NCBI RefSeq assembly: GCF_054482525.1
Contig: NZ_CM137006.1
Length of the DNA stretch: 64,000 nucleotides
Direction: 5' to 3' (one strand)
In this document: positions 2,351-57,934 of the stretch, piece after piece
Numbering within the stretch: position 1 is the stretch's first letter
Layout: every line of letters starts with the position of its first letter
Made by a program: the position numbers and the translations under genes
The notes under the pieces: model-generated
Told to the model about the DNA's origin: nothing
What the model saw: only the letters and a program-made list of their open reading frames with translations
Databases searched by the model: none

Positions 2351-2354
2351 GAAC

Positions 2355-3101: not shown

Positions 3102-3116
3102 ATATAAGGGAAAACG

Positions 3117-4812: not shown

Positions 4813-4814
4813 GC

Positions 4815-5780: not shown

Positions 5781-5782
5781 TG

Positions 5783-6262: not shown

Positions 6263-7482
6263 AAATACTGGTCTACGGCATTAACTACTCGCCGGAGTTA
6301 ACCGGCATCGGCAAATACACCGGAGAGATGGTGGAATGGCTTGCGGCACAAGGTCATGAGGTGCGGGTCATTACCGCACCGCCTTACTACCCGCAGTGGC
6401 AGGTGGGCGAGAACTATTCCGCCTGGCGGTACAAACGAGAAGAGGGGGCCGCTACGGTGTGGCGCTGCCCGCTGTACGTGCCAAAACAGCCGAGCACCCT
6501 GAAACGCCTGTTGCATCTCGGCAGTTTTGCCGTCAGCAGTTTTTTCCCGTTGATGGCGCAACGTCGCTGGAAGCCGGATCGCATTATCGGCGTAGTGCCA
6601 ACGCTGTTTTGCACGCCGGGAATGCGCCTGCTGGCGAAACTCTCTGGCGCGCGTACCGTGCTGCATATTCAGGATTACGAAGTGGATGCCATGCTGGGGC
6701 TGGGCCTTGCCGGAAAAGGCAAAGGCGGCAAAGTGGCACAGCTGGCAACGGCGTTCGAACGTAGCGGACTGCATAACGTCGATAACGTCTCCACGATTTC
6801 GCGTTCGATGATGAATAAAGCCATCGAAAAAGGCGTGGCGGCAGAAAACGTCATTTTCTTCCCCAACTGGTCAGAAATTGCCCGTTTTCAGCATGTCGCA
6901 GACGCCGATGTTGATGCCCTTCGTAACCAGCTTGGCCTGCCGGATAACAAAAAAATCATTCTTTACTCCGGCAATATTGGTGAAAAGCAGGGGCTGGAAA
7001 ACGTTATTGAAGCAGCCGAACGTCTGCGCGATGAACCGCTGATTTTTGCCATTGTTGGGCAGGGCGGCGGCAAAGCGCGGCTTGAAAAAATGGCGCAGCA
7101 GCGTGGACTGCACAACATGCAATTTTTTCCGCTGCAATCGTATGACGCTTTACCCGCACTGCTGAAGATGGGCGATTGCCATCTGGTGGTGCAAAAACGC
7201 GGCGCGGCAGATGCCGTATTGCCGTCGAAACTGACCAATATTCTGGCGGTAGGCGGTAACGCGGTGATTACCGCAGAGGCCCACACAGAACTGGGGCAGC
7301 TTTGCGAAACCTTTCCGGGCATTGCGGTTTGCGTAGAACCGGAATCGGTCGAGGCGCTGGTGGCGGGGATCCGTCAGGCGCTCCTGCTGCCCAAACACAA
7401 CACGGTGGCACGTGAATATGCCGAACGCACGCTCGATAAAGAGAACGTGTTACGTCAATTTATAAATGATATTCGGGGATAA
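6259..7482 (+). CDS. wcaI: Colanic acid biosynthesis glycosyltransferase WcaI (GT4)
   Basis: 407 aa; GT4 fold; synteny between gmm and cpsB. Confidence 0.88.
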
Positions 7483-7484
7483 TT

Positions 7485-8921
7485 ATGGCGCAGTCGAAAC
7501 TCTATCCAGTTGTGATGGCAGGTGGCTCCGGTAGCCGCTTATGGCCGCTTTCCCGCGTACTTTACCCCAAGCAGTTTTTATGCCTGAAAGGCGATCTCAC
7601 CATGCTGCAAACCACCATCTGCCGCCTGAACGGCGTGGAGTGCGAAAGCCCGGTGGTGATTTGCAATGAGCAGCACCGCTTTATTGTCGCGGAACAGCTG
7701 CGTCAACTGAACAAACTCACCGAGAACATTATTCTCGAACCGGCAGGGCGTAACACGGCACCTGCCATTGCGCTGGCGGCGCTGGCGGCAAAACGTCATA
7801 GCCCGGAGAGCGACCCGTTAATGCTGGTCTTGGCGGCGGATCATGTGATTGCCGATGAAGATGCGTTCCGCGCCGCCGTGCGTAACGCCATGCCATATGC
7901 CGAAGCGGGCAAGCTGGTGACCTTCGGCATTGTGCCGGATCTCCCTGAAACCGGTTATGGCTATATTCGTCGCGGTGAAGTGTCTGCTGGTGAGCAGGAT
8001 ACGGTGGCCTTTGAAGTGGCGCAGTTTGTCGAAAAACCGAATCTGGAAACCGCTCAGGCCTATGTGGCAAGCGGCGAATATTACTGGAACAGCGGTATGT
8101 TCCTGTTCCGCGCCGGACGCTATCTAGAAGAACTGAAAAAGTATCGTCCGGATATTCTCGATGCCTGTGAAAAAGCGATGAGCGCCGTCGATCCGGATCT
8201 CGATTTTATTCGCGTGGATGAAGAAGCGTTTCTGGCCTGCCCGGAAGAGTCGGTGGATTACGCGGTCATGGAACGTACGGCAGATGCCGTTGTGGTGCCG
8301 ATGGATGCGGGCTGGAGCGATGTCGGCTCCTGGTCCTCTTTATGGGAGATCAGCGCCCACACCGCCGAGGGCAACGTTTGCCACGGCGATGTGATTAATC
8401 ACAAAACTGAAAACAGCTATGTGTACGCCGAATCTGGTCTGGTCACCACCGTCGGGGTGAAAGATCTGGTGGTGGTGCAGACCAAAGATGCGGTGCTGAT
8501 TGCAGACCGTAACGCGGTACAGGATGTGAAAAAAGTGGTCGAGCAGATCAAAGCCGACGGTCGCCATGAGCATCGGGTGCATCGCGAAGTGTATCGTCCG
8601 TGGGGCAAATATGACTCTATCGACGCGGGCGACCGCTACCAGGTGAAACGCATCACCGTGAAACCGGGCGAGGGCTTGTCGGTACAGATGCACCATCACC
8701 GCGCGGAACACTGGGTGGTTGTCGCGGGAACGGCAAAAGTCACTATCGACGGTGATATCAAACTGCTTGGTGAAAACGAGTCCATTTATATTCCGCTGGG
8801 GGCGACGCACTGCCTGGAAAACCCGGGGAAAATTCCGCTCGATTTAATTGAAGTGCGCTCCGGGTCTTACCTCGAAGAGGATGATGTGGTGCGCTTCGCG
8901 GATCGCTACGGGCGGGTGTAG
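7485..8921 (+). CDS. cpsB: Mannose-1-phosphate guanylyltransferase (colanic acid copy)
   Basis: 478 aa; [15 protein letters not shown] nucleotidyltransferase motif; C-terminal cupin domain. Confidence 0.93.
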
Positions 8922-9022
8922 CAGTTGAATAATCAACCGGATTAATTCTCCGGTAAATAACGACAAAAACAAAATTGGCCGTTTCGGTCAGGGCCAACTA
9001 TTGCCTGAAAAAGGGTAACGAC

Positions 9023-10393
9023 ATGAAAAAATTAACCTGCTTTAAAGTCTACGATATTCGCGGGAAATTAGGCGAAGAACTGAATGAAGATATTGCCTGG
9101 CGTATTGGTCGCGCCTATGGCGAATTTCTTAAACCGAAAACCATTGTTTTAGGCGGTGATGTCCGCCTCACCAGCGAAACCTTAAAACTGGCGCTGGCAA
9201 AAGGTTTACAGGATGCGGGCGTCGATGTGCTGGATATTGGCATGTCCGGCACCGAAGAGATCTATTTCGCCACGTTCCATCTCAGCGTGGATGGCGGCAT
9301 TGAAGTTACCGCCAGCCATAACCCGATGGATTACAACGGCATGAAGCTGGTGCGCGAAGGGGCTCGCCCGATCAGCGGCGATACCGGACTGCGCGACGTC
9401 CAGCGTCTGGCAGAAGCCAATGACTTCCCTCCTGTCGATGAAACCAAACGCGGTCGCTATCAGCAAATCAATCTGCGTGACGCTTACGTTGATCACCTGT
9501 TCGGTTATATCAACGTCAAAAACCTCACGCCGCTCAAGCTGGTGATCAACTCCGGGAACGGCGCGGCGGGGCCGGTGGTGGACGCCATTGAAGCCCGCTT
9601 TAAAGCCCTCGGCGCACCCGTGGAATTGATCAAAGTGCACAACACGCCGGACGGGAATTTCCCCAACGGTATTCCTAACCCGCTGCTGCCGGAATGTCGC
9701 GACGACACCCGCAATGCGGTCATCAAACACGGCGCGGATATGGGCATTGCCTTTGATGGCGATTTTGACCGCTGTTTCCTGTTTGACGAAAAAGGGCAGT
9801 TTATCGAGGGCTACTACATTGTTGGCCTGCTGGCAGAAGCGTTCCTCGAAAAAAATCCCGGCGCGAAGATCATCCACGATCCACGTCTCTCCTGGAACAC
9901 CGTTGATGTGGTGACTGCCGCAGGCGGCACCCCGGTAATGTCGAAAACCGGACACGCCTTTATTAAAGAACGTATGCGCAAGGAAGACGCCATCTACGGT
10001 GGCGAAATGAGCGCCCACCATTACTTCCGTGATTTCGCTTACTGCGACAGCGGCATGATCCCGTGGCTGCTGGTCGCCGAACTGGTGTGCCTGAAAGGGA
10101 AAACGCTGGGCGAACTGGTGCGCGACCGGATGGCAGCGTTTCCGGCAAGCGGTGAGATCAACAGCAAACTGGCGCACCCCGTTGAGGCGATTAATCGCGT
10201 CGAACAGCATTTTAGCCGTGAGGCGCTGGCGGTGGATCGCACCGATGGCATCAGCATGACCTTTGCCGACTGGCGCTTTAACCTGCGCTCCTCCAACACC
10301 GAACCGGTGGTGCGGTTGAATGTGGAATCGCGCGGCGATGTACCGCTGATGGAAGCGCGAACGCGAACTCTGCTGACGTTGCTGAACGAGTAA
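9023..10393 (+). CDS. cpsG: Phosphomannomutase (colanic acid copy)
   Basis: ORF 8975..10393; start taken at MKKLTCFK (456 aa); phosphohexomutase active-site TASHNP. Confidence 0.93.
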
Positions 10394-10447
10394 TGTCGGA
10401 TCTTCCCTTACCCCACTGCGGGTAAGGGGCTAATAACAGGAACAACG

Positions 10448-13393: not shown

Positions 13394-14674
13394 ATGAAAT
13401 TACTTATTCTGGGCAACCACACTTGCGGCAATCGTGGCGACAGCGCCATCCTGCGAGGCTTACTTGATGCCATCAACATCCTCAATCCACATGCCGAAGT
13501 GGACGTGATGAGCCGCTATCCGGTCAGTTCTTCCTGGCTACTCAACCGCCCGGTAATGGGCGATCCGCTGTTCCTGCAAATGAAACAACATAACAGCGCG
13601 GCGGGCGTTGTCGGGCGCGTTAAAAAAGTCCTCCGTCGCCGCTACCAGCATCAGGTATTGCTCTCACGCGTCACCGACACTGGCAAGCTGCGTAATATCG
13701 CCATCGCCCAGGGATTCACCGACTTCGTGCGCCTGCTGTCAGGTTACGACGCCATTATTCAGGTCGGCGGATCGTTTTTTGTCGATCTCTACGGCGTGCC
13801 GCAGTTTGAACATGCGCTTTGCACGTTTATGGCGAAAAAGCCGCTGTTTATGATTGGTCACAGCGTCGGCCCCTTCCAGGATGAGCAATTTAACCAACTG
13901 GCGAACTACGTTTTCGGTCACTGTGACGCGCTGATCCTGCGCGAGTCGGTTAGCCTCGATCTAATGAAACGCAGCAATATCACCACTGCAAAAGTGGAAC
14001 ATGGCGTCGATACCGCGTGGCTGGTCGATCACCACACAGAAGATTTCACCGCCAGCTATGCCGTCCAACACTGGCTGGACGTTGCCGCACAACAGAAAAC
14101 GGTGGCAATTACCCTGCGCGAACTGGCACCGTTCGACAAACGTCTCGGCACCACTCAACAAGCGTATGAAAAAGCCTTTGCCGGGTTGGTCAATCGCATT
14201 CTCGACGAAGGGTATCAGGTGATTGCGCTCTCCACCTGTACGGGCATCGACAGCTATAACAAAGACGACCGCATGGTGGCGCTCAACCTGCGCCAGCACA
14301 TCAGCGATCCTGCCCGTTATCACGTAGTGATGGATGAACTCAACGATCTGGAAATGGGCAAAATTCTCGGTGCCTGTGAACTCACCGTCGGTACGCGCCT
14401 GCACTCGGCTATTATCTCGATGAACTTTGCCACTCCGGCAATTGCCATCAACTATGAACATAAATCCGCCGGGATTATGCAGCAGCTGGGGCTGCAAGAG
14501 ATGGCGATTGATATCCGTCATTTATTAGACGGCAGCCTGCAAGCGATGGTTGCGGATACCTTAGGCCAGCTTCCGGCGCTGAATGCGCGACTTAGTGAAG
14601 CCGTCAGTCGTGAGCGTCAGACAGGAATGCAGATGGTGCAGTCAGTGCTTGAGCGCATCGGGGAGGCGAAATGA
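13394..14674 (+). CDS. wcaK: Colanic acid pyruvyl transferase WcaK
   Basis: 426 aa; polysaccharide pyruvyl transferase-like; synteny. Confidence 0.88.
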   Translation: MKLLILGNHTCGNRGDSAILRGLLDAINILNPHAEVDVMSRYPVSSSWLLNRPVMGDPLFLQMKQHNSAAGVVGRVKKVLRRRYQHQVLLSRVTDTGKLRNIAIAQGFTDFVRLLSGYDAIIQVGGSFFVDLYGVPQFEHALCTFMAKKPLFMIGHSVGPFQDEQFNQLANYVFGHCDALILRESVSLDLMKRSNITTAKVEHGVDTAWLVDHHTEDFTASYAVQHWLDVAAQQKTVAITLRELAPFDKRLGTTQQAYEKAFAGLVNRILDEGYQVIALSTCTGIDSYNKDDRMVALNLRQHISDPARYHVVMDELNDLEMGKILGACELTVGTRLHSAIISMNFATPAIAINYEHKSAGIMQQLGLQEMAIDIRHLLDGSLQAMVADTLGQLPALNARLSEAVSRERQTGMQMVQSVLERIGEAK

Positions 14675-15891
14675 AGGTCGGCTTCTTTTTACTGAAATTC
14701 CCGCTGTCGTCAGAAACCTTCGTCCTCAACCAAATCACTGCGTTTATTGATATGGGCTTTGAGGTGGAGATTGTCGCGCTGCAAAAAGGCGACACCCAGA
14801 ACACCCACGCGGCATGGACGAAATACAACCTTGCCGCCAGAACCCGCTGGTTACAGGACGAACCTACGGGCAAAGTGGCGAAGCTGCGCCACCGCGCCAG
14901 CCAGACCTTACGCGGCATTCATCGTAAAAATACCTGGCAGGCGCTCAACCTCAAACGCTATGGTGCCGAGTCGCGGAACCTGATTTTGTCTGCCATTTGC
15001 GGCCAGGTCGCAACACCGTTTCGCGCCGATGTGTTCATCGCTCATTTTGGCCCGGCGGGGGTAACCGCAGCAAAACTACGGGAACTGGGTGTCATTCGCG
15101 GCAAAATCGCTACTATCTTCCACGGCATTGATATCTCCAGTCGGGAAGTGCTCAACCACTACACCCCCGAATATCAGCAACTGTTTCGCCGTGGCGATTT
15201 GATGCTACCGATAAGCGAGCTGTGGGCCGGAAGGCTGCAAAAAATGGGCTGCCCGAGGGAAAAAATCGCCGTATCGCGCATGGGCGTGGACATGACGCGC
15301 TTTAGCCCGCGTCCGGTGAAAGCGCCCGCAACGCCGCTGGAAATCATTTCCGTCGCACGCTTAACCGAGAAAAAAGGCCTGCATGTGGCGATTGAAGCCT
15401 GCCGTCAGTTGAAAGAGCAGGGCGTGGCATTTCGCTATCGCATCCTCGGCATTGGCCCGTGGGAACGACGCCTGCGCACCCTCATCGAACAATATCAACT
15501 GGAAGATGTGGTGGAGATGCCGGGCTTTAAACCGAGCCATGAAGTGAAAGCGATGCTCGATGACGCGGATGTCTTCCTGTTGCCATCGGTAACGGGTGCG
15601 GACGGTGATATGGAAGGTATTCCGGTGGCACTAATGGAAGCGATGGCGGTCGGCATTCCAGTAGTTTCCACTCTGCATAGCGGAATACCGGAACTGGTAG
15701 AGGCCGATAAATCCGGCTGGCTGGTGCCTGAGAACGATGCTCGCGCACTGGCGCAACGACTGGCGGCGTTTAGCCAACTGGACACCGACGAACTGGCTCC
15801 GGTCGTCAAACGCGCACGCGAAAAAGTCGAACACGATTTTAACCAGCAGGTGATCAATCGAGAACTCGCCAGCTTGCTGCAGGCTTTATAG
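14671..15891 (+). CDS. wcaL: Colanic acid biosynthesis glycosyltransferase WcaL (GT4)
   Basis: 406 aa; GT4 motif region ([28 protein letters not shown]); 4-bp overlap with wcaK. Confidence 0.88.
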
Positions 15892-15901
15892 AGGAGAACG
15901 C

Positions 15902-17296
15902 ATGCCATTTAAAAAACTCTCCCGACGCACCTTCCTGACGGCAAGCTCGGCGCTTGCCTTCCTCCATACCCCTTTCGCTCGCGCACTTCCCGACCAACAG
16001 AGCGTTAACATTAACGACTACAACCCTCACGACTGGATCGCCTCATTTAAACAAGCCTTCAGCGAAGGGCAAACAGTCGTCGTGCCTGCCGGATTGGTTT
16101 GCGACAATATCAACACCGGCATCTTCATTCCTCCTGGCAAAACGTTACACATCCTTGGAAGCCTGCGCGGCAACGGCAGAGGGCGATTTGTTTTACAGGA
16201 CGGCAGCCAGGTGACAGGGGAGGAGGGCGGCAGTATGCATAACATCACCCTGGATGTGCGTGGTTCTGACTGCACCATCAAAGGGTTGGCGATGAGCGGC
16301 TTTGGCCCGGTAACGCAGATTTATATCGGCGGCAAAAACAAACGGGTCATGCGCAACCTGACCATCGATAACTTGACCGTTAGCCACGCTAATTACGCCA
16401 TTTTACGCCAGGGATTTCATAACCAGATTATCGGTGCCAACATCACCAACTGTAAGTTCAGCGACTTACAGGGCGACGCCATTGAATGGAACGTGGCAAT
16501 TAACGACAGTGATATTTTGATTTCCGACCACATCATCGAGCGCATCAACTGTACTAACGGAAAAATCAACTGGGGCATTGGCATAGGCCTTGCGGGAAGT
16601 ACCTACAATAACAATTACCCGGAAGACCAGACAGTGAAAAATTTTGTTGTGGCGAATATCACGGGATCGGATTGTCGGCAGTTGATACATGTTGAAAATG
16701 GTAAACATTTTGTTATTCGTAATATCAAAGCCCGCAATATCACACCGGATTTCAGTAAGAAAGCAGGTATTGATAACGCCACAGTTGCTATTTATGGTTG
16801 TGACAACTTTGTGATTGATAATATTGAAATGATTAATAGTGCCGGGATGTTAATCGGCTATGGGGTAATTAAAGGCAAATATCTCTCGATACCGCAGAAT
16901 TTCCGGGTGAATAATATTCAACTGGATAATACTCATCTTGCTTATAAATTGCGCGGCATTCAAATCTCCGCCGGGAATGCTGTCTCCTTTGTGGCGCTGA
17001 CTAACATTGAGATGAAGCGTGCGTCGCTGGAGTTACACAACAAACCGCAACATCTTTTTATGCGTAATATCAATGTGATGCAGGAATCCTCAGTTGGACC
17101 CGCATTGAGCATGAACTTCGACATGCGCAAAGACGTACGAGGTGTCTTTATGGCGAAAAAAGAAACACTGCTATCTCTTGCAAATGTTCATGCGGTGAAT
17201 GAAAGAGGGCAAAGCTCTGTCGATATCGACAGGATTAATCACCATATTGTTAATGTGGAAAAGATTAACTTTAGATTGCCGGAACGGAGGGAGTAG
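15902..17296 (+). CDS. wcaM: Colanic acid biosynthesis protein WcaM (secreted, beta-helix-like)
   Basis: 464 aa; N-terminal signal/Tat-like ([13 protein letters not shown]); last gene of wca cluster by synteny. Confidence 0.88.
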
Positions 17297-17453
17297 ATTT
17301 GCGACCATTCATAAACTTACTGGATATAATGTTCTAAAAGATTATAATCCTCACACTAACTGTTAAAGCTGGGGCTGGGCAGCATTGACTACTCAGGGAA
17401 GGTACTCATCTTTATCTTGTGTTTCTTACGTAACAACCAGACTAAAGTGATTT

Positions 17454-18449
17454 ATGAACGATAACGTTTTGCTCATAGGAGCTTCCGGATTCGTAGGAAC
17501 CCGACTACTTGAAACGGCAATTGCTGACTTTAATATCAAGAACCTGGACAAACAGCAGAGCCACTTTTATCCAGAAATCACACAGATTGGCGATGTTCGT
17601 GATCAACAGACACTCGACCAGGCGTTAGCCGGTTTTGACACTGTTGTACTACTGGCAGCGGAACACCGCGATGATGTCAGTCCTACTTCTCTCTATTATG
17701 ATGTCAACGTTCAGGGTACCCGCAATGTACTGGCGGCCATGGAAAAAAATGGCGTTAAAAATATCATCTTTACCAGTTCCGTTGCTGTTTATGGTTTGAA
17801 CAAACACAACCCTGACGAAAACCATCCACACGACCCTTTCAACCACTACGGCAAAAGTAAGTGGCAGGCAGAGGAGGTGCTGCGTGAATGGTATAACAAA
17901 GCACCAACAGAACGTTCATTAACCATCATCCGTCCTACCGTTATCTTCGGTGAACGCAACCGCGGTAACGTCTATAACTTGCTGAAACAGATCGCTGGCG
18001 GCAAGTTTATGATGGTGGGCGCAGGGACTAACTATAAGTCCATGGCTTATGTTGGAAACATTGTTGAGTTTATTAAGTACAAACTGAAGAATGTTGCCGC
18101 AGGTTATGAGGTTTATAACTACGTTGATAAGCCAGACCTGAACATGAACCAGTTGGTTGCTGAAGTTGAACAAAGCCTGAACAAAAAGATCCCTTCTATG
18201 CACTTGCCTTACCCACTAGGAATGCTGGGTGGATATTGCTTTGATATCCTGAGCAAAATTACGGGCAAAAAATACGCTGTCAGCTCTGTGCGCGTGAAAA
18301 AATTCTGCGCAACTACACAGTTTGACGCAACGAAAGTGCATTCTTCAGGTTTTGTGGCACCGTATACGCTGTCGCAAGGTCTGGATCGAACTCTGCAGTA
18401 TGAATTCGTCCATGCCAAAAAAGACGACATAACGTTTGTTTCTGAGTAA
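17454..18449 (+). CDS. gne: NAD-dependent sugar 4-epimerase (Gne-type; UDP-GlcNAc/GalNAc-related epimerase)
   Basis: 331 aa; N-terminal Rossmann GASGFVG; SDR-like YGKSK; located between wcaM and galF, where K-12 as I recall it has no gene but other E. coli lineages carry gne. Confidence 0.75.
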   Translation: MNDNVLLIGASGFVGTRLLETAIADFNIKNLDKQQSHFYPEITQIGDVRDQQTLDQALAGFDTVVLLAAEHRDDVSPTSLYYDVNVQGTRNVLAAMEKNGVKNIIFTSSVAVYGLNKHNPDENHPHDPFNHYGKSKWQAEEVLREWYNKAPTERSLTIIRPTVIFGERNRGNVYNLLKQIAGGKFMMVGAGTNYKSMAYVGNIVEFIKYKLKNVAAGYEVYNYVDKPDLNMNQLVAEVEQSLNKKIPSMHLPYPLGMLGGYCFDILSKITGKKYAVSSVRVKKFCATTQFDATKVHSSGFVAPYTLSQGLDRTLQYEFVHAKKDDITFVSE

Positions 18450-18691
18450 TGCAGACGAGTCAGAGAAAAAAGGACCAGGTTAGACTACGATTATTCGGAA
18501 AGAGGTACTGATTAAATTATCAGTATGTGGATTTCCGAGTAATCCGAGTAACCCAGATGCTGATGGTGTGTAGTGTTATCGTAAGGTTTAATCAAAGTTA
18601 TGCGGAGCTAAGCTTTGGTATATAGCCATAACGTTTGGCTAACCTATGGCAATAATTTACGCACTATCAGCCACTTAGAGGTAGGAAAAGA

Positions 18692-19585
18692 ATGACGAAT
18701 TTAAAAGCAGTTATACCGGTAGCAGGTCTTGGGATGCATATGTTGCCTGCCACTAAGGCGATACCCAAAGAGATGCTACCGATCGTCGACAAGCCAATGA
18801 TTCAGTACATTGTTGACGAGATTGTGGCTGCAGGGATCAAAGAAATCCTCCTGGTAACTCATGCGTCCAAGAACGCGGTCGAAAACCACTTCGACACCTC
18901 TTATGAATTAGAATCTCTCCTTGAACAGCGCGTGAAGCGTCAGCTGCTGGCGGAAGTGCAGTCGATCTGTCCACCGGGAGTGACCATTATGAACGTGCGT
19001 CAGGGCGAACCTTTAGGTTTAGGCCACTCCATTTTGTGTGCGCGACCCGCCATTGGCGACAACCCATTTGTCGTGGTACTGCCAGACGTAGTGATCGACG
19101 ACGCCAGCGCCGACCCGCTGCGCTACAACCTTGCTGCCATGATTGCGCGCTTCAATGAAACGGGCCGTAGCCAGGTGCTGGCAAAACGTATGCCGGGTGA
19201 CCTTTCTGAATACTCCGTTATTCAGACCAAAGAGCCGCTGGATCGTGAAGGCAAAGTCAGCCGCATTGTTGAATTTATCGAAAAACCGGATCAGCCGCAG
19301 ACGCTGGACTCAGACATCATGGCCGTTGGTCGCTATGTGCTTTCTGCGGATATTTGGCCGGAACTTGAACGCACTCAACCTGGTGCATGGGGGCGTATTC
19401 AGCTGACTGATGCCATTGCTGAACTGGCGAAAAAACAGTCCGTTGATGCAATGCTGATGACCGGTGACAGTTACGATTGTGGCAAGAAAATGGGCTATAT
19501 GCAGGCGTTTGTGAAGTATGGACTGCGCAACCTGAAAGAAGGGGCGAAGTTCCGTAAAGGTATTGAAAAGCTGTTAAGCGAATAA
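18692..19585 (+). CDS. galF: UTP-glucose-1-phosphate uridylyltransferase regulatory subunit GalF
   Basis: 297 aa; nucleotidyltransferase motif [23 protein letters not shown]; flanks O-antigen cluster as expected. Confidence 0.95.
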
Positions 19586-19838
19586 TGAAAATCTGACCGG
19601 ATGTAACGGTTGATAAGAAAATTATAACGGCGGTGAGGATTCGTGGGGCTAATTGTACTCATTGCCTCATTCTTTCTTTATACCGTTCTAAATATGAGTA
19701 ACAATAACTTTTCAATAGGCATTTATTGTGGGAGGCTGAGATTTTCTCCATCTCTGAAGCGATTTGGTAAAACGTTCAGAGTTAAGCTTTTCGAACTAAC
19801 CATAACGGTTAATGCTAGTTACAACTAGGACATGCATG

Positions 19839-19877
19839 CAGTACGCTGGTAGCTGTTGAGCCAGGGGCGGTAGCGTG
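19839..19877 (+). promoter_or_regulatory. JUMPstart element with ops site (GGCGGTAGCGTG) for RfaH-dependent antitermination
   Basis: Sequence cagtacgctggtagctgttgagccaggggcggtagcgtg read directly; 39-bp JUMPstart consensus ending in the 12-bp ops motif, ~80 bp upstream of the first O-antigen gene. Confidence 0.85.
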
Positions 19878-19957
19878 AATTAAATGTTTATCCCATATTA
19901 CTTAACAAATTGTAAACTATCGTGCAAAATAAGACTTGTTAAGTACGTAGGCTCGTT

Positions 19958-21193
19958 ATGTTAAAAAACATCATCTATTTATTAAGCGTTCAAGGTGGCA
20001 ATTATATATTTCCATTGGTCACACTGCCTTATCTTGTCAGGATCCTTGAACCTACAGGATACGGGATATATGGGTATAGTTTTGCTGTGGTCCAATATTT
20101 TATATTATTTATTGATTACGGATTTAACTACTCAGCGCCCAAAATCATATCAATATCAAGGGAAAATACTGATTCCATAAGTAAAGTTTTTTGGAATGTA
20201 ACGTTTATCAAAATAATTGCAGCATCTCTTGGTTTGTTAATTATTTATTTAATTTCGGAATTGAATATCATTGATTACCAAATTAAATTTATCATTCTTG
20301 CATACATATCTGTCGTAGGAAATTTAATATATCCAGTATGGTTTTTTCAAGGGCTGGAAAAAATGTTAGGAATAGCGATAAGTATGTTTTCCGCACGCTT
20401 ACTTACACTATGTTTAACATTTTTATTGGTTAAAAGTGAAAAGGATCTTGGTATAGCGATAACAATACAATCATCAATAACAGTTATTGCAGGTATAATA
20501 TCTACATATTTTTTATTTTCTCTTAAAAAAATAATATGGGTACCACCATCCTTATCCAAAATGAAAGAGTTAATTTATGATGGATGGCATTACTTCATTT
20601 CCTCTGCAGCAATAAGCCTTTATACTACTAGTTCAACAATAATATTAGGTGCATTATCAGGAACAACTGCAGTGGGATATTTTATCGCTGCAGATAAAAT
20701 TAGGCTTGCACTACAAGGCGTTATTGGTCCTATAACCCAAGCTGTTTTTCCTAGAGTAACTTATATAATGAAGGATAATCATGACGATGGACTATTATTA
20801 GCCAGGAAAGTGTTTCGATGGCAATTTTCACTGATGTTCGTACTTTCCATATTTCTTTACTTTTTTGCAGACGATATAATTTTAATCATGTATGGAAAAA
20901 CGTATCATGAATCTTTAGAAATACTCAAGGTTTTAGCTTTTACTCCAGCAATAGTTACGGTAAGTAATTATATTGCAATTTTAGTAATGATCCCTATTGG
21001 TATGAAAAAAGAATTTACAAAAATTATTACTACCAGTGGATTAATAGGCCTACTGATAATTACTTATTTGACTAATGAATACTCAGGAGTTGGTACAGCA
21101 ATAGGAGTTATTTCAACTGAGTTTATAATAATGGCGAGATTTTACTTTTTGATTAAGAAAACAAATAAATTAAATAATTTAAATTTATTGTAG
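19958..21193 (+). CDS. wzx: O-antigen flippase Wzx
   Basis: 411 aa, ~12 predicted TM segments, polysaccharide biosynthesis protein family N-terminus; AT-rich; first gene after JUMPstart. Confidence 0.75.
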   Translation: MLKNIIYLLSVQGGNYIFPLVTLPYLVRILEPTGYGIYGYSFAVVQYFILFIDYGFNYSAPKIISISRENTDSISKVFWNVTFIKIIAASLGLLIIYLISELNIIDYQIKFIILAYISVVGNLIYPVWFFQGLEKMLGIAISMFSARLLTLCLTFLLVKSEKDLGIAITIQSSITVIAGIISTYFLFSLKKIIWVPPSLSKMKELIYDGWHYFISSAAISLYTTSSTIILGALSGTTAVGYFIAADKIRLALQGVIGPITQAVFPRVTYIMKDNHDDGLLLARKVFRWQFSLMFVLSIFLYFFADDIILIMYGKTYHESLEILKVLAFTPAIVTVSNYIAILVMIPIGMKKEFTKIITTSGLIGLLIITYLTNEYSGVGTAIGVISTEFIIMARFYFLIKKTNKLNNLNLL

Positions 21194-21201
21194 GGCTAAC
21201 A

Positions 21202-21927
21202 ATGAATAAACCAACTTTAACAATAGTTACCGTTGTGTACAATGGCGAAATGTATATCGAAGATACTATAAAAAGTGTCTTATCACAAAACTGCAATGAT
21301 GACATTGAATATATTATAATTGATGGTGCATCAACGGATAATACTCTAAATATTGTTAATTCTTACAAAAATGAAATTTCATATATCATTTCTGAAAATG
21401 ATAATGGTATATATGATGCAATGAATAAAGGTGTGTTAAAAGCATCTGGAAATTATATAGGATTTATAAACGCTGATGATTTTTATAATAAAGATGTATT
21501 ATGTCAAGTAATAAAAGTAATGAAAGAAAATAAATATGATGTTATTTATGGAAATATGTCTTTGGTAGAGGCTGATAGCTTGGATGTTATTCAGGTCCGG
21601 AGGCCTAAAGACTGGAAACTACATATAGATATGAATTTAAGCCATCCGGCCACATTTATTAGAAAAGATATCCACAGAGAAAATTTATTTAATACTAGCT
21701 ATAAAATTGCTTCTGATTATGATCTTTTGCTAAAATTGAAGAAACAAGGTTATATCTTTCATTATATTGATAAAAATATCTCTTCGATGAGAAATGCCGG
21801 CCTTAGCGCTAAAAATGTAAAATTAGCATTGGAGGAAGCGAGACAAATCCGAAAGAAAAGAAACGGGAAATTATATGCGGCGTTAGCAGATATTTACCTA
21901 TTTATGAGAAAAGTTATAAAAAGATGA
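21202..21927 (+). CDS. Glycosyltransferase family 2 (WcaE-like)
   Basis: 241 aa; motifs IIDGASTDNT and [11 protein letters not shown] shared with WcaE (2355..3101). Confidence 0.8.
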   Translation: MNKPTLTIVTVVYNGEMYIEDTIKSVLSQNCNDDIEYIIIDGASTDNTLNIVNSYKNEISYIISENDNGIYDAMNKGVLKASGNYIGFINADDFYNKDVLCQVIKVMKENKYDVIYGNMSLVEADSLDVIQVRRPKDWKLHIDMNLSHPATFIRKDIHRENLFNTSYKIASDYDLLLKLKKQGYIFHYIDKNISSMRNAGLSAKNVKLALEEARQIRKKRNGKLYAALADIYLFMRKVIKR

Positions 21928-23159
21928 TTAATAGAAACATAAAAATTAGTGCTTCATTTATTTCAATAATTTATTTGCCTTTTGCTTTATTATTAGCAAT
22001 GATTGAAATGATTAATGGGGCCAGATGGAGTGTTTATGTATGTTCATTTATGCTAGGGGTACTAGCATTTTTGTTAATACCTTATGAAAATTGGGATTTG
22101 ACTAGGCATTATGAAACATATTTATATGTTAGTCAAACATCACTAAACAAAGTTTTTGAAAATAGTGACAATAGATATATTACAATAAATACTGTTATTT
22201 ATTTATTTAAATCTTTAGGAATAAAAAAAGAATTTTTACCTTTTTTTTCAACATTTTTATCATATATTTTTTATTTTAATATATATGTTAATCACATTAA
22301 AAAATACAATCCGGAATTATCTCATAGATGTATATATTTATATATTCTAATAAGCGTAATCCCATTTTTTGCTATAGCTAGTTCATTGCGGCAATATCTT
22401 GCATTTAGTATTATGCTTTATATGATCATACAGTATTTCACCAGTGAAAATAATAGGTATAAGTCACAAAAAATTATATTCTCTGCAATTATTTCATGTT
22501 GTATTCATCCCAGCGCAATACTATTGCTAGGTGTTTTTTTTGTTAGCAAATTAATAAGACTTAACAAAACAATATTGTATTTAATAATATTAGTTCTAAT
22601 CCTTAACCATGATGGATTAATATCTTCTTTGCTATTTCAATTGATTAGGCCATTATTGGAAAGCTTAGGTTTTTACTTTCCCGAATATATGGACTCTGTA
22701 ACCATAGGCATAAGCAATAGCTTGCTGAGCACTAATGAATATATCTTGAATAAGATCATATTACCGTCAGTGTTTTTTATTTTTACTTTTATCTATTTAA
22801 TTTTATTTAATAAAAAAATGACGAGGCAAGAGTCACAAATCAAAAATTTTTGCAGTTTACTTCTTTTGCTGATATGCCTTTTATCGTTATCGCCTGATTT
22901 ATTTTATCGATTTTCCATTTTCTGGGTGTTATTATATAGTTATATATTTTTCTCCTACGATATTAATAAAATTAGCAAACTATGTAAGCATCTGATCTTC
23001 TTAATACTCATTACCGCATGTTCAATCATAAATTTGGCACAGGCAAATATGGGTAAAGATATTATTTATGTGTCTTGGTGCGATATATTGTATAAGCCCT
23101 CATTATTCCTATTCAATAAAGAAGTTAAATCAGCAGAATATATAAGAGTGAGTCAATAA
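21924..23159 (+). CDS. wzy: O-antigen polymerase Wzy (putative)
   Basis: 411 aa, very hydrophobic, multiple TM helices, no soluble-enzyme motifs, very AT-rich; typical of Wzy in O-antigen clusters. Confidence 0.6.
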   Translation: MINRNIKISASFISIIYLPFALLLAMIEMINGARWSVYVCSFMLGVLAFLLIPYENWDLTRHYETYLYVSQTSLNKVFENSDNRYITINTVIYLFKSLGIKKEFLPFFSTFLSYIFYFNIYVNHIKKYNPELSHRCIYLYILISVIPFFAIASSLRQYLAFSIMLYMIIQYFTSENNRYKSQKIIFSAIISCCIHPSAILLLGVFFVSKLIRLNKTILYLIILVLILNHDGLISSLLFQLIRPLLESLGFYFPEYMDSVTIGISNSLLSTNEYILNKIILPSVFFIFTFIYLILFNKKMTRQESQIKNFCSLLLLLICLLSLSPDLFYRFSIFWVLLYSYIFFSYDINKISKLCKHLIFLILITACSIINLAQANMGKDIIYVSWCDILYKPSLFLFNKEVKSAEYIRVSQ

Positions 23160-23160
23160 A

Positions 23161-24228
23161 ATGTCCATTGGAGTCTTTAAGCTGTATGAAAATAAAATAG
23201 GTGGCACTGAGAAAGCAGTTGAAAATCTAATTGATATATTAACTAAAAACAGCCTACAAGTGAGATGTTTTTCAGCAATAAACGCACAAGAGATACAAGT
23301 TAGAGAAGATAATCGGAAAACCTACTTATTCCAAGACAATACTGCATATGAAGAAAGCAAATTAAGGTTTTACATTAAATATTTGTTTTTTTTGAGTGCC
23401 AAAAGTAAAGACCTTGAATTAATAATTTCCACGGATATAGCTACATCATCATTATTGTTATTGATTGGTTTTTTTCGGTGTAATAAGAATAAAATTATTT
23501 GCTGGGAACATTATCCATTTGACAAGAATAGTATTTTTTGGAGAAAAGTATTTAAATTTCTTTTGTCTCTTAATAAAAAAGCTGTAGTAGTTTGTAATTC
23601 TCACAAGGAAAAAGATAAGTTTACTTTTTGTAAAAGGGTTGTAATTATACCAAATTCAATCAAAACGCAAAAATATAAGCGCATACATCAAGGAAAAGAA
23701 ACTCTTGATTTGATTTATATTGGTCGGATTGTTAAAGATAAAGGAGTTGAAAGGTTAATTAATGCAGTAATAAATCACCCGTCTACAAAAAAGTATGTTT
23801 TACACATTGTAGGAGGTGGTCAAGAGCTGGAGTATCTCAAATCTAAATATAAGAATAACAACCAAATACACTTTCATGGACCGAGTTTAAACACAGATGT
23901 TTTTTTGGCAAAAAGTGATGTTTTTGTATCCGGTTCATACTTTGAATGTTTTCCTGTTACAATACTTGAAGCTATGTCCTACGGATTACCTGTAATTTCA
24001 ATGGATATATCTGGAGGGACAAGTAGCGTGATTTCTTCATCGGGTGGCGGATTTGTGTGTCAATCTCAAATTGAATTTCAGGAAAAACTAACTTACTTTG
24101 AAGATAATGTTAAACGAACCGAACACGGAAATGCAGGATTCCTATTCGTGAATAGACATTATACAGAAGAAATAGTTAGTGCTCAGTGGATGAGTTTGAT
24201 CAATCGAGCCAATAGTCAAGAAAATTAA
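23161..24228 (+). CDS. Glycosyltransferase family 4 (GT1 fold)
   Basis: 355 aa; C-terminal motif FPVTILEAMSYGLPVIS typical of retaining GT4 enzymes. Confidence 0.75.
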   Translation: MSIGVFKLYENKIGGTEKAVENLIDILTKNSLQVRCFSAINAQEIQVREDNRKTYLFQDNTAYEESKLRFYIKYLFFLSAKSKDLELIISTDIATSSLLLLIGFFRCNKNKIICWEHYPFDKNSIFWRKVFKFLLSLNKKAVVVCNSHKEKDKFTFCKRVVIIPNSIKTQKYKRIHQGKETLDLIYIGRIVKDKGVERLINAVINHPSTKKYVLHIVGGGQELEYLKSKYKNNNQIHFHGPSLNTDVFLAKSDVFVSGSYFECFPVTILEAMSYGLPVISMDISGGTSSVISSSGGGFVCQSQIEFQEKLTYFEDNVKRTEHGNAGFLFVNRHYTEEIVSAQWMSLINRANSQEN

Positions 24229-24248
24229 GGTATTGGAGCTATTAAAGT

Positions 24249-25265
24249 ATGAGCATACTTGTGACTGGTGGGGCTGGCTATATTGGCTCACATGCTATAT
24301 TAACTTTATTGCAAAATGGATATGATGTTATATCGCTAGATAATTATTGCAATTCCTCTCCAAAATCTCTAGAACGAGTAGAGGAAATTTGCTTATCTAA
24401 GATAAAAAAATTACGTGGTGATATTAGAGATAGACATATATTAAAAAATATCTTTTCAAAATATAATGTTTCTACTGTAATGCATTTTGCGGGTTTAAAA
24501 TCTGTTAACGAGTCCATTAAAAAACCATTAGAATATTACGACACAAATCTTTTGGGGACTCTAATATTACTTGATGAAATGCAGAAAGCGAATATTTCTA
24601 ATCTAATTTTTAGTTCGTCTGCTACTGTCTATGGCAATCCTCATTATGTTCCAATATCTGAAAAACACCCTGTCGGTGAGGTGATCAATCCGTACGGTCG
24701 TTCAAAGTTTATGGTGGAACATATATTGCGTGATTTTTGTAACGCGAATAGCGACGCAAATATCACAATACTAAGATATTTTAATCCTGTAGGTGCTCAT
24801 AAGACTGGATTAATTGGAGAAGATCCTTTAGGAACTCCTAATAACCTGTTTCCCTATGTTGCGCAAGTCGCAATTGGAAAATTACCCTATCTAAATGTTT
24901 TTGGTAATAAATATATGACAAAAGATGGAACAGGTGTAAGAGATTATATCCATGTAGTCGATTTAGTTGAGGGGCATCTTGCCGCTTTAAAAAATCTCAA
25001 TAGAAACCGGGGGCTTAAAGTTTTTAATTTAGGCACTGGTCAAGGTTATAGTGTGTTAGATATCATCGACGCTTTTAAACTGGAAACAGGACGCGATATA
25101 CCTTTCCGTATCGTTTCTGAGCGAAATGGAGATGTGGCTGAATGTTGGTCCGATCCTTCCTTAGCAAACGAGCAGCTAAGTTGGGTTGCTAAAAGGACTC
25201 TTAATAATATGGTGGAAGATGCATGGAGATGGCAAACAATGAATCCAAATGGATATAAAGAGTAA
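24249..25265 (+). CDS. UDP-glucose/UDP-galactose 4-epimerase (GalE family) encoded inside the O-antigen cluster
   Basis: 338 aa; TGGAGYIGSH Rossmann motif, SSSATVYG and YGRSK catalytic motifs of GalE-type epimerases. Confidence 0.85.
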   Translation: MSILVTGGAGYIGSHAILTLLQNGYDVISLDNYCNSSPKSLERVEEICLSKIKKLRGDIRDRHILKNIFSKYNVSTVMHFAGLKSVNESIKKPLEYYDTNLLGTLILLDEMQKANISNLIFSSSATVYGNPHYVPISEKHPVGEVINPYGRSKFMVEHILRDFCNANSDANITILRYFNPVGAHKTGLIGEDPLGTPNNLFPYVAQVAIGKLPYLNVFGNKYMTKDGTGVRDYIHVVDLVEGHLAALKNLNRNRGLKVFNLGTGQGYSVLDIIDAFKLETGRDIPFRIVSERNGDVAECWSDPSLANEQLSWVAKRTLNNMVEDAWRWQTMNPNGYKE

Positions 25266-25333
25266 ATTGAAACAATTATAATCATCCATTTCATTGCTTA
25301 CTGTATTGTTATCTATATATATGAAAACAAAAA

Positions 25334-26341
25334 ATGAAAATATTATATGATGGGATTGTGAAAAGTTTACAATCATATGGTGGTATCACTGTATACTTTG
25401 AAGAAATCATTAAGAGATTAAAAAATGACGAATACAAATTCATTCAATTTAATGATAAAAATGAAAATCACAATGATGATCTCCATCGGCCATGCCGGTT
25501 TTTAGAACGATATAGATGTTTTGAAGCATTAAAAAGTGATTCAGATTACAGTATATTTCATTCTACATATTATCGGGTTCCGAAAGATGGGGAATATGCG
25601 GTTGTGACCACGGTCCACGATTTCACATATGAATTGTATATGAAAGGACTTCGGCGCAATGTTCATAGCTTACAAAAAAGATGGGCTGTGAAACATAGCG
25701 ATGCAATCATTTGTGTCTCTAATAATACAGCCAAGGATTTAATTAATTTCTTTAAGGTTGATGAAAAAAAGATACATGTTATTCATAATGGTGTATCGGA
25801 AGATTATAGACACTTAAATCTAGAAAAAGAAAATTTTGTGCTTTTTGTCGGTGCTCGTTCAGGATATAAAAATTTTGAGCTTGCAGTTAAAGCCGTTTCT
25901 AAACTTTTTGATACTAATCTTAAAATAGTCGGCGGAGGTGGTTTAAATAAAGCAGAAATGAAGTTACTATCTGAATATCTTCCAGAAAGATTCCAGTACT
26001 TAGGGAAGGTATCAAATGAAAAACTAAATATATTATATAATTCGGCTTATTGCTTAATCTATCCTTCAGAATATGAAGGGTTTGGAATTCCCTTGCTTGA
26101 GGCTATGCGAACTGGCTGTCCTGTGATAGCCGTAAATAGATCATCAATACCCGAGGTTGTGGGGGATAGTGCGATTTTAGTCGAAGAAGTATCAATTGAA
26201 AGTTTATTCTCAGCTTTATTAAGTGTAGAAGCTAACGCTAATGAATTAAAAAATAAAGGATTAGCGCAATCTAATAAATTTTCATGGGGGAAGTGTTTCT
26301 CCGAAACATATAATCTATATAAATCACTATCTAAGTTTTGA
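25334..26341 (+). CDS. Glycosyltransferase family 4
   Basis: 335 aa; [21 protein letters not shown] motif (E-x7-E). Confidence 0.78.
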
Positions 26342-26351
26342 GAGGTTATTT

Positions 26352-27473
26352 ATGTGTAAGAAAGCTTTAATTACAGGAATTACCGGGCAAGATGGTTCCT
26401 ACTTGGCAGAATTTCTGCTTAAAAAAGGCTATGAGGTTCATGGAATAAAACGTCGATCTTCCTTGTTTAATACTGACCGTATTGATCATATATATCAAGA
26501 CCCACACCATCGTAATTTAAAATTACAACTTCATTATGGTGATTTAACAGATACTTCTAATTTGACTCGGATATTATCTGAAGTTCAACCTGATGAAGTT
26601 TATAATCTTGGCGCAATGAGTCACGTAGCTGTTTCCTTCGAATCCCCAGAATATACAGCTGATGTTGATGCTATAGGTACTTTACGATTATTGGAAGCTA
26701 TTCGTTTTTTGGGATTAGAAAAAAAAACCCGATTTTATCAGGCGTCAACCTCTGAATTGTATGGATTAGTTCAGGAAGTTCCACAAAAAGAGACAACGCC
26801 GTTCTATCCTCGTTCACCTTATGCCGTAGCTAAACTGTATGCATATTGGATCACTGTAAACTATCGTGAGTCTTATGGAATGTATGCATGTAACGGTATT
26901 TTGTTCAATCATGAATCCCCACGTCGTGGGGAAACGTTTGTAACACGTAAAATCACACGTGCTATAGCTAATATATCGCAGGGAATAGAAAAATGCTTAT
27001 ATCTTGGCAACATGGATTCTTTACGCGATTGGGGGCATGCGAAAGATTATGTTCGTATGCAATGGATGATGCTTCAACAAGACCAGCCAGAAGACTTTGT
27101 TATTGCCACCGGCAAACAAATATCTGTACGTGAATTTGTCCGTATGTCTGCTAAAGAAGTTGGACTTGAACTTGAGTTTTCCGGTACTGGTGTTGATGAG
27201 ATTGCATTTGTTGTAAATAAAACATCAGATTGCGCCGTTGGTGTTAATATTGGTGATGTTATTGTTCGCGTTGACCCTCGTTATTTTCGACCAGCAGAAG
27301 TTGAAACTCTTCTTGGTGATCCAACAAAAGCAAAAAATGTCTTGGGTTGGGAGCCAGAGATTACAGTTGAAGAAATGTGTGCAGAAATGGTGGCTAGTGA
27401 TTTAGAAAAAGCTAAACAGCATGCACTTCTTAAAAGCCATGGTTTTGACGTGGCAGTCTCTTTGGAGCGTTAA
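26352..27473 (+). CDS. gmd: GDP-mannose 4,6-dehydratase (O-antigen copy, low GC)
   Basis: 373 aa; protein highly similar to colanic acid Gmd (3691..4812) but with divergent, AT-richer codon usage. Confidence 0.93.
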
Positions 27474-27476
27474 AGT

Positions 27477-28442
27477 ATGACCAAGAAGCGAATTTTTGTG
27501 GCTGGACATCGTGGGATGGTTGGTTCTGCTATTTGTCGTCAATTATTAGCACGTAATGATGTTGAGTTAATTGTCAAAACTCACAAAGAACTCGATTTGA
27601 CAGTTCAAAAGGATGTTGAATGTTTTTTTGAGCAAGAGAGAATAGATCAGGTTTACCTTGCAGCAGCAAAAGTAGGAGGAATTCATGCTAATAACACTTT
27701 TCCAGCTGAATTTATTTATCAGAACCTTCTTATTGAAAGCAATATTATTCACTCATCTTACAAAGCGGGCATAAAGAAACTATTATTCTTAGGGTCAAGT
27801 TGTATCTATCCAAAGTTTGCAGAACAGCCAATGAAAGAATCTGCACTTTTGACGGGAACTCTTGAGCCTACTAATGAGCCTTATGCTATTTCCAAAATAG
27901 CAGGTATAAAGCTATGTGAATCTTATAATCGCCAATATGGATGTGATTATCGCAGTGTAATGCCTACTAACTTATATGGTATGAATGATAATTTTCATCC
28001 CAATAACTCACATGTAATTCCAGCGCTTATGCGGCGTTTTCATGAAGCAAAGGAACTTGGTTTAAATGAAGTGGTTGTCTGGGGAACGGGAACTCCAAAA
28101 CGCGAGTTTTTATATGTTGATGATATGGCCGCTGCATCAGTATATGTGATGGAGCTTGATGATGAAATTTATAAAAAAAATACTCAACCAATGTTATCTC
28201 ATATTAACGTAGGTACTGGTGTTGATTGTTCCATACGTGAAATGGCAGAAACAATGGCTTTAGTTGTTGGCTATGATGGAAAAATTGTTTTTGATATAAC
28301 AAAACCAGATGGTTCGCCTCGTAAACTTATGGATGTTACACGCCTTGAGAATTTGGGTTGGAAATATCGTTATAATTTAAAACAAGGACTAGAATTAACA
28401 TATAAATGGTTTATAAATAATCTTGACTCATTTAGGAGTTAA
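27477..28442 (+). CDS. fcl: GDP-L-fucose synthase (O-antigen copy)
   Basis: 321 aa; paralogue of 4815..5780 with the same motifs. Confidence 0.93.
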
Positions 28443-28444
28443 TA

Positions 28445-28900
28445 TTGAACAAGAGATTAGAAACAGAGTTATTTAAATCAATAGTTGAACATACTCCACT
28501 AATCTCGATAGACCTTATTATAAGAAACGAAGATGGTAAGGCGCTGCTTGGTCAGCGCCTTAATCGTCCAGCACAAAATTATTGGTTTGTGCCGGGGGGA
28601 CGGATTCTTAAAGATGAGTCTTTCGAGAACGCATTCAAAAGAGTTACTTTAGAAGAATTGGGTGTTCAAATTAGCATTAATGAAGCAAAATTTCTTGGGA
28701 TTTATGAACATTTCTACAGCGACAATTTTTCTGGGACTTGTTTTTCAACTCATTATGTCGTACACGGATATGAGATTAGTTTGATGCCACATCAAATTAA
28801 CTATCCAACACTACAACATAGTACTTACAATTGGTTCGATATAGCCGAATTGTTAGCTAATTCCTCAGTTCATCAGTACACAAAAAATTATTTTAAGTGA
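28445..28900 (+). CDS. gmm: GDP-mannose mannosyl hydrolase (O-antigen copy; apparent TTG start)
   Basis: 151 aa; aligns with colanic acid Gmm (NRPAQ.YWFVPGG); no in-frame ATG near the start, TTG at 28445 just after the fcl stop. Confidence 0.8.
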   Translation: MNKRLETELFKSIVEHTPLISIDLIIRNEDGKALLGQRLNRPAQNYWFVPGGRILKDESFENAFKRVTLEELGVQISINEAKFLGIYEHFYSDNFSGTCFSTHYVVHGYEISLMPHQINYPTLQHSTYNWFDIAELLANSSVHQYTKNYFK

Positions 28901-28911
28901 AGGTTATTTAT

Positions 28912-30297
28912 ATGCTACTTCCTGTTGTAATGGCCGGTGGTTCTGGAACTAGATTGTGGCCACTTTCTCGAACACTATATCCGAAGCAATTCCTATCGTT
29001 AACTAGTCGTTTGACTATGCTACAAGAGACCTTAAGAAGGCTTGAAGGGGTTGAACATCGTCCTGCTCTGGTTATTTGTAATGAAGTTCATCGTTTTATC
29101 GTTGCAGAACAGATGCGTAATGTAAATTTAGCGAATAGTGGCATTTTACTAGAGCCGATAGGTCGTAATACAGCCCCCGCAGTTGCGCTTGCTGCTCTTA
29201 AAGCGATTTCATCAGGTGAGGATCCAATACTGCTTGTACTAGCAGCCGATCATGAAATACAAGACCAAAAGCGCTTTATATCGTCAATATTGGCTGCAAA
29301 AGAATTTGCAGAGGAAGGTAAGCTGGTAACTTTTGGTATTGTGCCAACCAAACCCGAAACTGGATATGGCTACATAAAAACCGGAGAAAATTTAAATGAA
29401 TATGGTTTTAAAGTTTCTGCTTTTGTTGAAAAGCCTGAGCTAGATGTGGCCAAAAAATATCTTGAAGATGGAGATTATCTTTGGAATAGTGGAATATTCA
29501 TGTTTAGGGCTTCTGTGTTTATTGATGAGTTGAATAAATTTAGACCAGACATACTAAAAATATGCCAACAAGCATTGAAGTCCTCTACACAAGATCTTGA
29601 TTTTATCCGTATAGATAATGACTCATTTAGTTGTTGCCCTGAAGAATCCATTGATTACGCTGTTATGGAGAAAACAACAGAGGCTGTGGTAGTTCCATTA
29701 AATGCCCACTGGAGCGATGTTGGTTCTTGGTCTGCATTATGGGAAATTAGCAGAAAAGATAAAAGTGGAAATGCAATTAGAGGAGATGTATTAATTCATG
29801 ATTCTTCTGACAGTTATCTTTACTCACAACATAGATTAATTGGTGTAGTAGGAGTTAAAGATTTAGTAGTTGTTGAAACTAAAGATGCTATTCTCGTTGC
29901 GCATAAAGATAAAGTTCAACAGGTAAAAAATATTGTAGAAAAACTTAAAGTTAATAACCGTACGGAATATCTGCAGCATCGTGAAATATTTAGGCCATGG
30001 GGCAGTCATGACTCTATAGCGGAAGGATCTCGATTTGAGGTTAAACATGTCGTTATTCATCCTGGACATAAAACTGCTAAACAGATTCATTACCATCGTA
30101 CTGAGCATTGGATTGTTGTTTCTGGAACAGCAAAAGTCCATTATGAAGATGAAATATTTCTTGTTTCTGAAAATGAATCAACTTATATACCAATAGGTGT
30201 ACCTCATTTTATTGAGAATCCAGGAAAGATCCCTTTGGAGATTATTGAGGTACGTTCAGGTGTCTACTTGGATGAAGATGATGTTGTTAGAATCTAA
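28912..30297 (+). CDS. manC: Mannose-1-phosphate guanylyltransferase (O-antigen copy)
   Basis: ORF 28897..30297; start chosen at [16 protein letters not shown] (ATG 28912) by alignment with CpsB; low-GC paralogue. Confidence 0.9.
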   Translation: MLLPVVMAGGSGTRLWPLSRTLYPKQFLSLTSRLTMLQETLRRLEGVEHRPALVICNEVHRFIVAEQMRNVNLANSGILLEPIGRNTAPAVALAALKAISSGEDPILLVLAADHEIQDQKRFISSILAAKEFAEEGKLVTFGIVPTKPETGYGYIKTGENLNEYGFKVSAFVEKPELDVAKKYLEDGDYLWNSGIFMFRASVFIDELNKFRPDILKICQQALKSSTQDLDFIRIDNDSFSCCPEESIDYAVMEKTTEAVVVPLNAHWSDVGSWSALWEISRKDKSGNAIRGDVLIHDSSDSYLYSQHRLIGVVGVKDLVVVETKDAILVAHKDKVQQVKNIVEKLKVNNRTEYLQHREIFRPWGSHDSIAEGSRFEVKHVVIHPGHKTAKQIHYHRTEHWIVVSGTAKVHYEDEIFLVSENESTYIPIGVPHFIENPGKIPLEIIEVRSGVYLDEDDVVRI

Positions 30298-30368
30298 AAT
30301 GATGCTGGATACTAATGCAACATTATTATTCGTAATGCTGTACTGACGTTATTTAATTATGATTATTA

Positions 30369-31127: not shown

Positions 31128-31151
31128 TTTTATTATTGGTAAGGTTTTTAT

Positions 31152-57858: not shown

Positions 57859-57934
57859 TGGCTCCTCTGACTGGACTCGAACCAGTGACATACGGATTAA
57901 CAGTCCGCCGTTCTACCGACTGAACTACAGAGGA
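57859..57934 (-). tRNA. asnV: tRNA-Asn (GUU)
   Basis: 76-nt sequence whose reverse complement is TCCTCTGTAGTTCAGTCGGTAGAACGGCGGACTGTTAATCCGTATGTCACTGGTTCGAGTCCAGTCAGAGGAGCCA; cloverleaf with GTT anticodon and CCA end. Confidence 0.95.

Follow-up and report, generated by a model that had tools for sequence, protein, structure and literature searches.

The window analysed here, a 64,000-nt stretch of contig NZ_CM137006.1 (RefSeq assembly GCF_054482525.1), carries an epimerase gene between wcaM and galF, upstream of an O-antigen gene cluster. The locus raises two linked questions: whether the enzyme is a Gne, which would supply UDP-GalNAc, or a Gnu, which would act on a lipid-linked sugar, and what its gene says about the sugar that begins the O unit encoded downstream. 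The initial annotation had described an NAD-dependent, gne-type epimerase gene inserted into an interval that is empty in K-12.

The open reading frame (17454..18449, + strand) starts with ATG and encodes 331 amino acids in the ORF listing of the window, and the RefSeq annotation of PCN033 uses the identical start codon. It lies between wcaM, the last colanic acid gene, on the left (15902..17296, +; NCBIfam NF007517, 1021 bits against a cut-off of 808) and galF on the right (18692..19585, +; TIGR01105, 689 bits against a cut-off of 659), which is where the initial annotation had placed it. The corresponding wcaM–galF gap of K-12 MG1655 consists of 174 non-coding bp, in agreement with the statement of the initial annotation that K-12 has no gene here. 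We take the ORF to be a genuine gene, since megablast recovers the 1395-bp wcaM–galF interval, 95–100% identical, from 1314 (∼24%) of the 5426 complete genomes of E. coli. PCN033 matches at 100%, and genomes of O157:H7 and O55:H7 match at 99.0%. The interval has at least two forms: the short K-12 form is present in 3311 of the 5426 genomes (61%), and the remaining ∼800 were assigned to neither.

That the product is an NAD-dependent epimerase was borne out by a match to PF01370 (NAD-dependent epimerase/dehydratase; 2e-30) and by the motif scan and the alignment with K-12 GalE, in which all cofactor and catalytic SDR motifs are intact. The NAD-binding GxxGxxG motif reads GASGFVG (residues 9–15; codons at 17478..17498, +), its G9, G12 and G15 aligning with G7, G10 and G13 of GalE, and the catalytic YxxxK motif reads YGKSK (residues 132–136; codons at 17847..17861, +). 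Ser109, which sits in FTSS ahead of YGKSK, Tyr132 and Lys136 fall in invariant columns with Ser124, Tyr149 and Lys153 of GalE. Hydropathy analysis predicted no transmembrane segment in the protein, the highest 19-residue Kyte–Doolittle mean (1.45) corresponding to the Rossmann β1 strand, and a hydrophobic-moment search found no strong amphipathic helix.

At the level of the family, 330 of the 331 residues are shared with the same-locus protein of O157:H7 TW14359, so the proposed membership of the Z3206 family holds; the single difference is T53 here and A53 there. The two loci have the same wcaM–gnu–galF order and the same protein length, and the interval DNA is 99.0% identical, but the downstream cluster is that of O157 in one and O11 in the other. 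The RefSeq product name is the same for the gene here and for its O157 and PCN033 counterparts. Profile searches gave a different picture of the relatives. In the NCBIfam scan no model was matched at or above its cut-off: the best-scoring relative, HpnA (hopanoid-associated epimerase), reached 95.5 bits against a cut-off of 367.65, and the GalE model TIGR01179 reached 71.7 bits against 262.3 (E = 4.7e-20), covering residues 5–170 only. Pfam 3Beta_HSD matched at 1.9e-27, and the nearest PDB entries by sequence search were human NSDHL (6jkg, 1.7e-17) and an uncharacterised SDR (8rdg). The same search found no solved Gnu-family structure in the PDB, which is a general gap for the family and not peculiar to this window. 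With every NCBIfam model below cut-off, the protein is assigned to its family through near-identity to a single characterised enzyme. An unrelated SDR family among the best hits had been named as the outcome that would speak against the initial annotation, and here the result is divided: the protein belongs to the Z3206 family, but in the HMM and PDB searches it comes closest to SDRs of HpnA-like and 3-beta-HSD-like type and not to GalE or Gne.

Those neighbours (HpnA, 3Beta_HSD and NSDHL) are the argument for assigning the protein some other SDR activity, such as that of a 4-keto reductase or a sterol- or hopanoid-type dehydrogenase, misnamed through homology transfer. Their scores are nevertheless far under the family cut-offs, as the HpnA value illustrates, and with 99.7% identity to the biochemically characterised O157 enzyme another activity is all but precluded. 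We consider the chance of such a misnaming to be negligible.

The choice between Gnu and Gne depends on what is known of the O157 enzyme. The galE homologue found just upstream of the O-antigen genes in O157 originally received the name gne, on the assumption that WecA transfers GalNAc-1-P (PMC3682973). According to Rush 2010, as far as that work is reported in PMC3682973, the O157 enzyme is inactive on UDP-GlcNAc and instead converts UndPP-GlcNAc to UndPP-GalNAc. Because it works on UndPP-GlcNAc and not on UDP-GlcNAc, the gene was renamed gnu (clade D; PMC3682973), and gne was reserved for the GalE-like clade A (PMC3682973; Cunneen, Liu, Wang, Reeves 2013). The same study found gnu at the same locus in E. 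coli, Salmonella, Citrobacter, Cronobacter, Edwardsiella and Serratia. Judged from its near-identity to the O157 protein, the ORF at 17454..18449 is very probably gnu, encoding the E. coli GlcNAc-PP-undecaprenol 4-epimerase, a clade D extended SDR, and acting in the first-sugar pathway of O11. Its specificity for UndPP-GlcNAc, not UDP-GlcNAc, is taken from the literature and would apply here by that likeness. As such, gnu in this window is an already known, routinely annotated gene and brings no new biology.

The 2002 reading, which the initial annotation follows, would make the protein a true Gne, a soluble UDP-GlcNAc 4-epimerase forming UDP-GalNAc, with WecA then transferring the sugar to UndP. 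It can draw on the first name of the gene (gne in Wang 2002, as cited in later papers), on the remote relationship of this SDR epimerase to GalE (TIGR01179, E = 4.7e-20) and on the title of Guo 2007, by which the identical protein of O86 would act on UDP-hexoses. Still, the GalE-model score is far under its cut-off, the protein is only 27% identical to the GalE-like protein of the O11 cluster, and with this GalE-like protein, which has Cys in the place of Tyr299, the cluster already possesses a clade A epimerase of its own; we regard a true Gne at 17454..18449 as very unlikely. The label ‘gne-type’ is outdated for this gene, given that the O157 enzyme is Gnu by the literature and the GalE model is matched at 71.7 bits, below 262.3. 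The distinction has practical consequences: a gne label would predict the wrong pathway, in which UDP-GalNAc is made and WecA transfer follows, and would hide the clade A candidate at 24249..25265.

This second epimerase is probably the real Gne-type candidate of the window. The fifth gene of the cluster (24249..25265, +) encodes a 338-aa GalE-like clade A protein that scores 427.5 bits against TIGR01179 (cut-off 262.3). Its product is 51% identical to K-12 GalE and, in the alignment, has Cys at the gatekeeper Tyr299 position. A small residue at the gatekeeper position of GalE and human GALE opens the pocket to N-acetylated substrates, and structures of Y299C GalE (1lrj, 1lrk and 1lrl) were among the PDB search matches. 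These features point to a UDP-GlcNAc/UDP-Glc 4-epimerase, and a clade A gene within an O-antigen cluster has been held to be probably gne (PMC3682973).

With gnu outside the cluster and the gne candidate inside it, the window has a pair like those of E. coli O86 (gne1 upstream of galF, gne2 in the cluster) and O125, where a clade D gene likewise lies outside and a GalE-like gene inside. The arrangement differs in that gne2 of O86 is the first gene after galF, whereas the GalE-like gene here is the fifth. As enzymes, Gnu and clade A Gne/GalE (Y. enterocolitica O:8 Gne, E. coli GalE) have in common the extended SDR fold, the GxxGxxG motif, the Ser/YxxxK triad and epimerisation at C4. They differ in the carrier, which according to the literature is UDP for Gne/GalE and undecaprenyl diphosphate for Gnu, and their identity is 27–32%, mainly in the N-terminal domain, with Gnu not reaching the GalE HMM cut-off.

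The cluster downstream of galF (19958..32522, +) contains, by the PCN033 annotation and the ORF lists, wzx, a GT2 gene, wzy, a further glycosyltransferase gene, the GalE-like gene, a GT4 gene, gmd, fcl, gmm, manC, another GT2 gene and manB. It encodes four glycosyltransferases and the GDP-Man and GDP-Fuc pathways, with no initial-transferase gene. A comparison of the window with PCN033 gave 5 SNPs across 33.4 kb, all of them outside gnu. Serology places PCN033 in O11, and a published account finds its cluster similar to that of the O11 type strain G1207. By this sequence correspondence, the cluster is the serogroup O11 locus.

The association of gnu with GalNAc-initiated O antigens, which the initial annotation had proposed, is well founded in the literature. 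In Cunneen 2013 (PMC3682973), the presence or absence of gnu agreed with the chemistry of the O unit for 104 of the 115 E. coli serogroups, O11 not being among the serogroups of Table S2, and the Liu 2019 review, like structural papers after it, treats gnu upstream of galF as marking GalNAc as first sugar. For O11 itself, a synthesis paper (after Li et al. 2011) describes a pentasaccharide with β-D-GalNAc at the reducing end, followed by α-L-Fuc and α-D-Man; the remainder comprises a second, α-linked 2-acetamido sugar and one more α-linked sugar. In that description, the reducing-end β-D-GalNAc is the only β-linked residue of the unit. From this reducing-end residue we infer that GalNAc is the biological first sugar of O11, and the GalNAc predicted earlier for the downstream cluster is supported to that extent. 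Initiation by WecA followed by Gnu fits the gene content, since there are five sugars, four glycosyltransferases and no initial-transferase gene.

An intact gnu might nonetheless be dispensable here, having hitch-hiked with flanking DNA by recombination, while the O11 unit starts on GlcNAc. Precedents are not lacking, with 10 cases of gnu or gne present without predicted need (PMC3682973); gnu also lies outside the JUMPstart-controlled operon, and the O11 unit contains a further N-acetylhexosamine. Co-occurrence across genomes speaks against it. The O11 wzy gene is present in 65 complete E. coli genomes, and in 65 of 65 the order gnu–galF–wzx(O11) is contiguous, gnu making up 26.6% of the length of the query used; these genomes stem from many hosts and backgrounds. 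In addition, the only β-linked, reducing-end residue of the O11 unit, as published, is GalNAc, and the reading frame is unbroken and keeps every catalytic motif. A dispensable gnu appears highly improbable. Under its proper name, gnu in front of galF serves as a useful marker of a GalNAc-initiated O unit (here O11); it aids in fixing the biological repeat unit, and glycoengineering makes use of it.

In the proposed pathway, WecA, encoded elsewhere in the ECA cluster, would make UndPP-GlcNAc, as described in the literature. Gnu would then invert C4 of this lipid-linked sugar to give UndPP-GalNAc, a step reported for the O157 enzyme and expected here from the 99.7% identity. By analogy with GalE, inversion may proceed through transient oxidation to a 4-keto intermediate, which would then be reduced again from its opposite side; such a GalE-type, NAD-dependent 4-keto route is favoured on account of the conserved Ser/Tyr/Lys triad and glycine-rich loop. 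Gnu, an extended SDR, would hold its NAD and work in the cytoplasm as a peripheral enzyme, and because no transmembrane segment is predicted, it would have to reach its lipid substrate peripherally. The four O11 glycosyltransferases would extend UndPP-GalNAc, after which Wzx would flip and Wzy polymerise the units. The WecP and Gne pair of Aeromonas hydrophila O34 arrives at the same first intermediate, UndPP-GalNAc, by the reverse order of steps: in Aeromonas the nucleotide sugar is epimerised by Gne and WecP transfers GalNAc-1-P, whereas in E. coli WecA transfers GlcNAc-1-P and epimerisation follows on the lipid.

How the gene came to lie in this interval is a separate matter. When the K-12 interval was compared with the window by blastn, homology stopped at 17310, 14 bp past the wcaM stop codon, and restarted at 18675, 17 bp before the galF ATG. 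The segment between these points (17311..18674, 1364 bp) is without a K-12 counterpart, and 142 unrelated bp occupy its place in K-12. Gnu is the only + strand ORF in 17311..18674, where one overlapping antisense ORF is also listed. An O157 genome and another of O11 align with K-12 over the stretches of the query that the window also matches (1–114 and 257–374), which points to the same gnu-segment junctions in all three. Both junctions are sharp and repeat-free: no terminal inverted repeats or target-site duplications were found at 17310/18675, and repeats across the interval were of chance-level length (10–17 nt). In composition, gnu (45.0% GC, GC3 48.5%) resembles its neighbours wcaM and galF, whereas the O11 genes, at a GC3 of ∼24%, are quite distinct.

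The earlier description of the gene as ‘inserted’ is accordingly not demonstrated, as 1364 bp replace 142 bp, no flanking repeats are present and the composition is not strongly foreign. We prefer to regard the two versions of the interval as allelic alternatives, either of which may be the older. A mobile insertion (IS, transposon or cassette) was considered and rejected because the repeat search returned no terminal inverted repeats or target-site duplications; there is also no transposase or integrase ORF, and the K-12 spacer is replaced, not interrupted. Separately, one of the ∼800 genomes with neither form shows a loss at this locus. In the gut commensal E. coli G6/7 (NZ_CP060061.1), an IS1A at 1349..3237 of the extracted locus takes the place of the wcaM 3′ end and gnu, the gnu–galF spacer being kept, an IS1-associated deletion of gnu.

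Expression signals set gnu apart from the O-unit genes. A consensus scan of the 157-bp wcaM–gnu spacer located a candidate sigma-70 promoter (17321..17348, +; TGGATA-16-TATAAT), identified by consensus match only (10 of 12 positions), and a terminator scan found no convincing terminator between gnu and galF. Transcription of gnu would, on this match, start from its own promoter at ∼17321..17348. The Rfam scan of both spacers returned a sole match, the JUMPstart/ops element downstream of galF (19839..19877, +; RF01707, 57 bits, E = 8e-12), which begins the RfaH-dependent O-unit operon and includes the ops sequence GGCGGTAG at 19866, between galF and wzx. Because JUMPstart is located after galF, gnu lies outside the RfaH-dependent operon, a placement that the literature also gives for enterobacterial gnu genes.

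These observations could be combined into a broader scenario, in which the sharp junctions, common to the window and to the O157 and O11 genomes compared, would mark the gnu form and the K-12 form as two old alternative spacer alleles that move with the O-antigen cluster through homologous recombination. Gnu, on its own promoter outside JUMPstart/RfaH control, would then have first-sugar epimerisation regulated apart from the O-unit operon, possibly drawing on the UndPP-GlcNAc pool common to ECA synthesis. We regard this scenario as a whole as unlikely and put it forward tentatively.

Several minor features of the window were also recorded. Within gnu, an antisense ORF of 94 aa with a GTG start (17919..18203, −) is unsupported and presumably spurious. 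A second exact copy of GGCGGTAG, an ops-like octamer, occurs at 7245 (+) in the colanic acid coding region and is probably a chance match. Across 13394..25265, GC3 falls stepwise, from ∼63% in wcaK/wcaL to 55% in wcaM, 48.5% in gnu, 56% in galF and ∼24% in the O11 genes. Two complete GDP-mannose/GDP-fucose gene sets (gmd, fcl, gmm, manC/cpsB and manB/cpsG) are present, one at ∼3700..10400 in the colanic acid cluster and one at 26352..32522, a low-GC copy (GC3 ∼24%) in the O11 cluster. Towards the end of the window (∼57900..63600) lie three tRNA-Asn genes, one of them adjoined by a tyrosine recombinase/integrase gene, in what we take to be the usual asn-tRNA hotspot of island integration.
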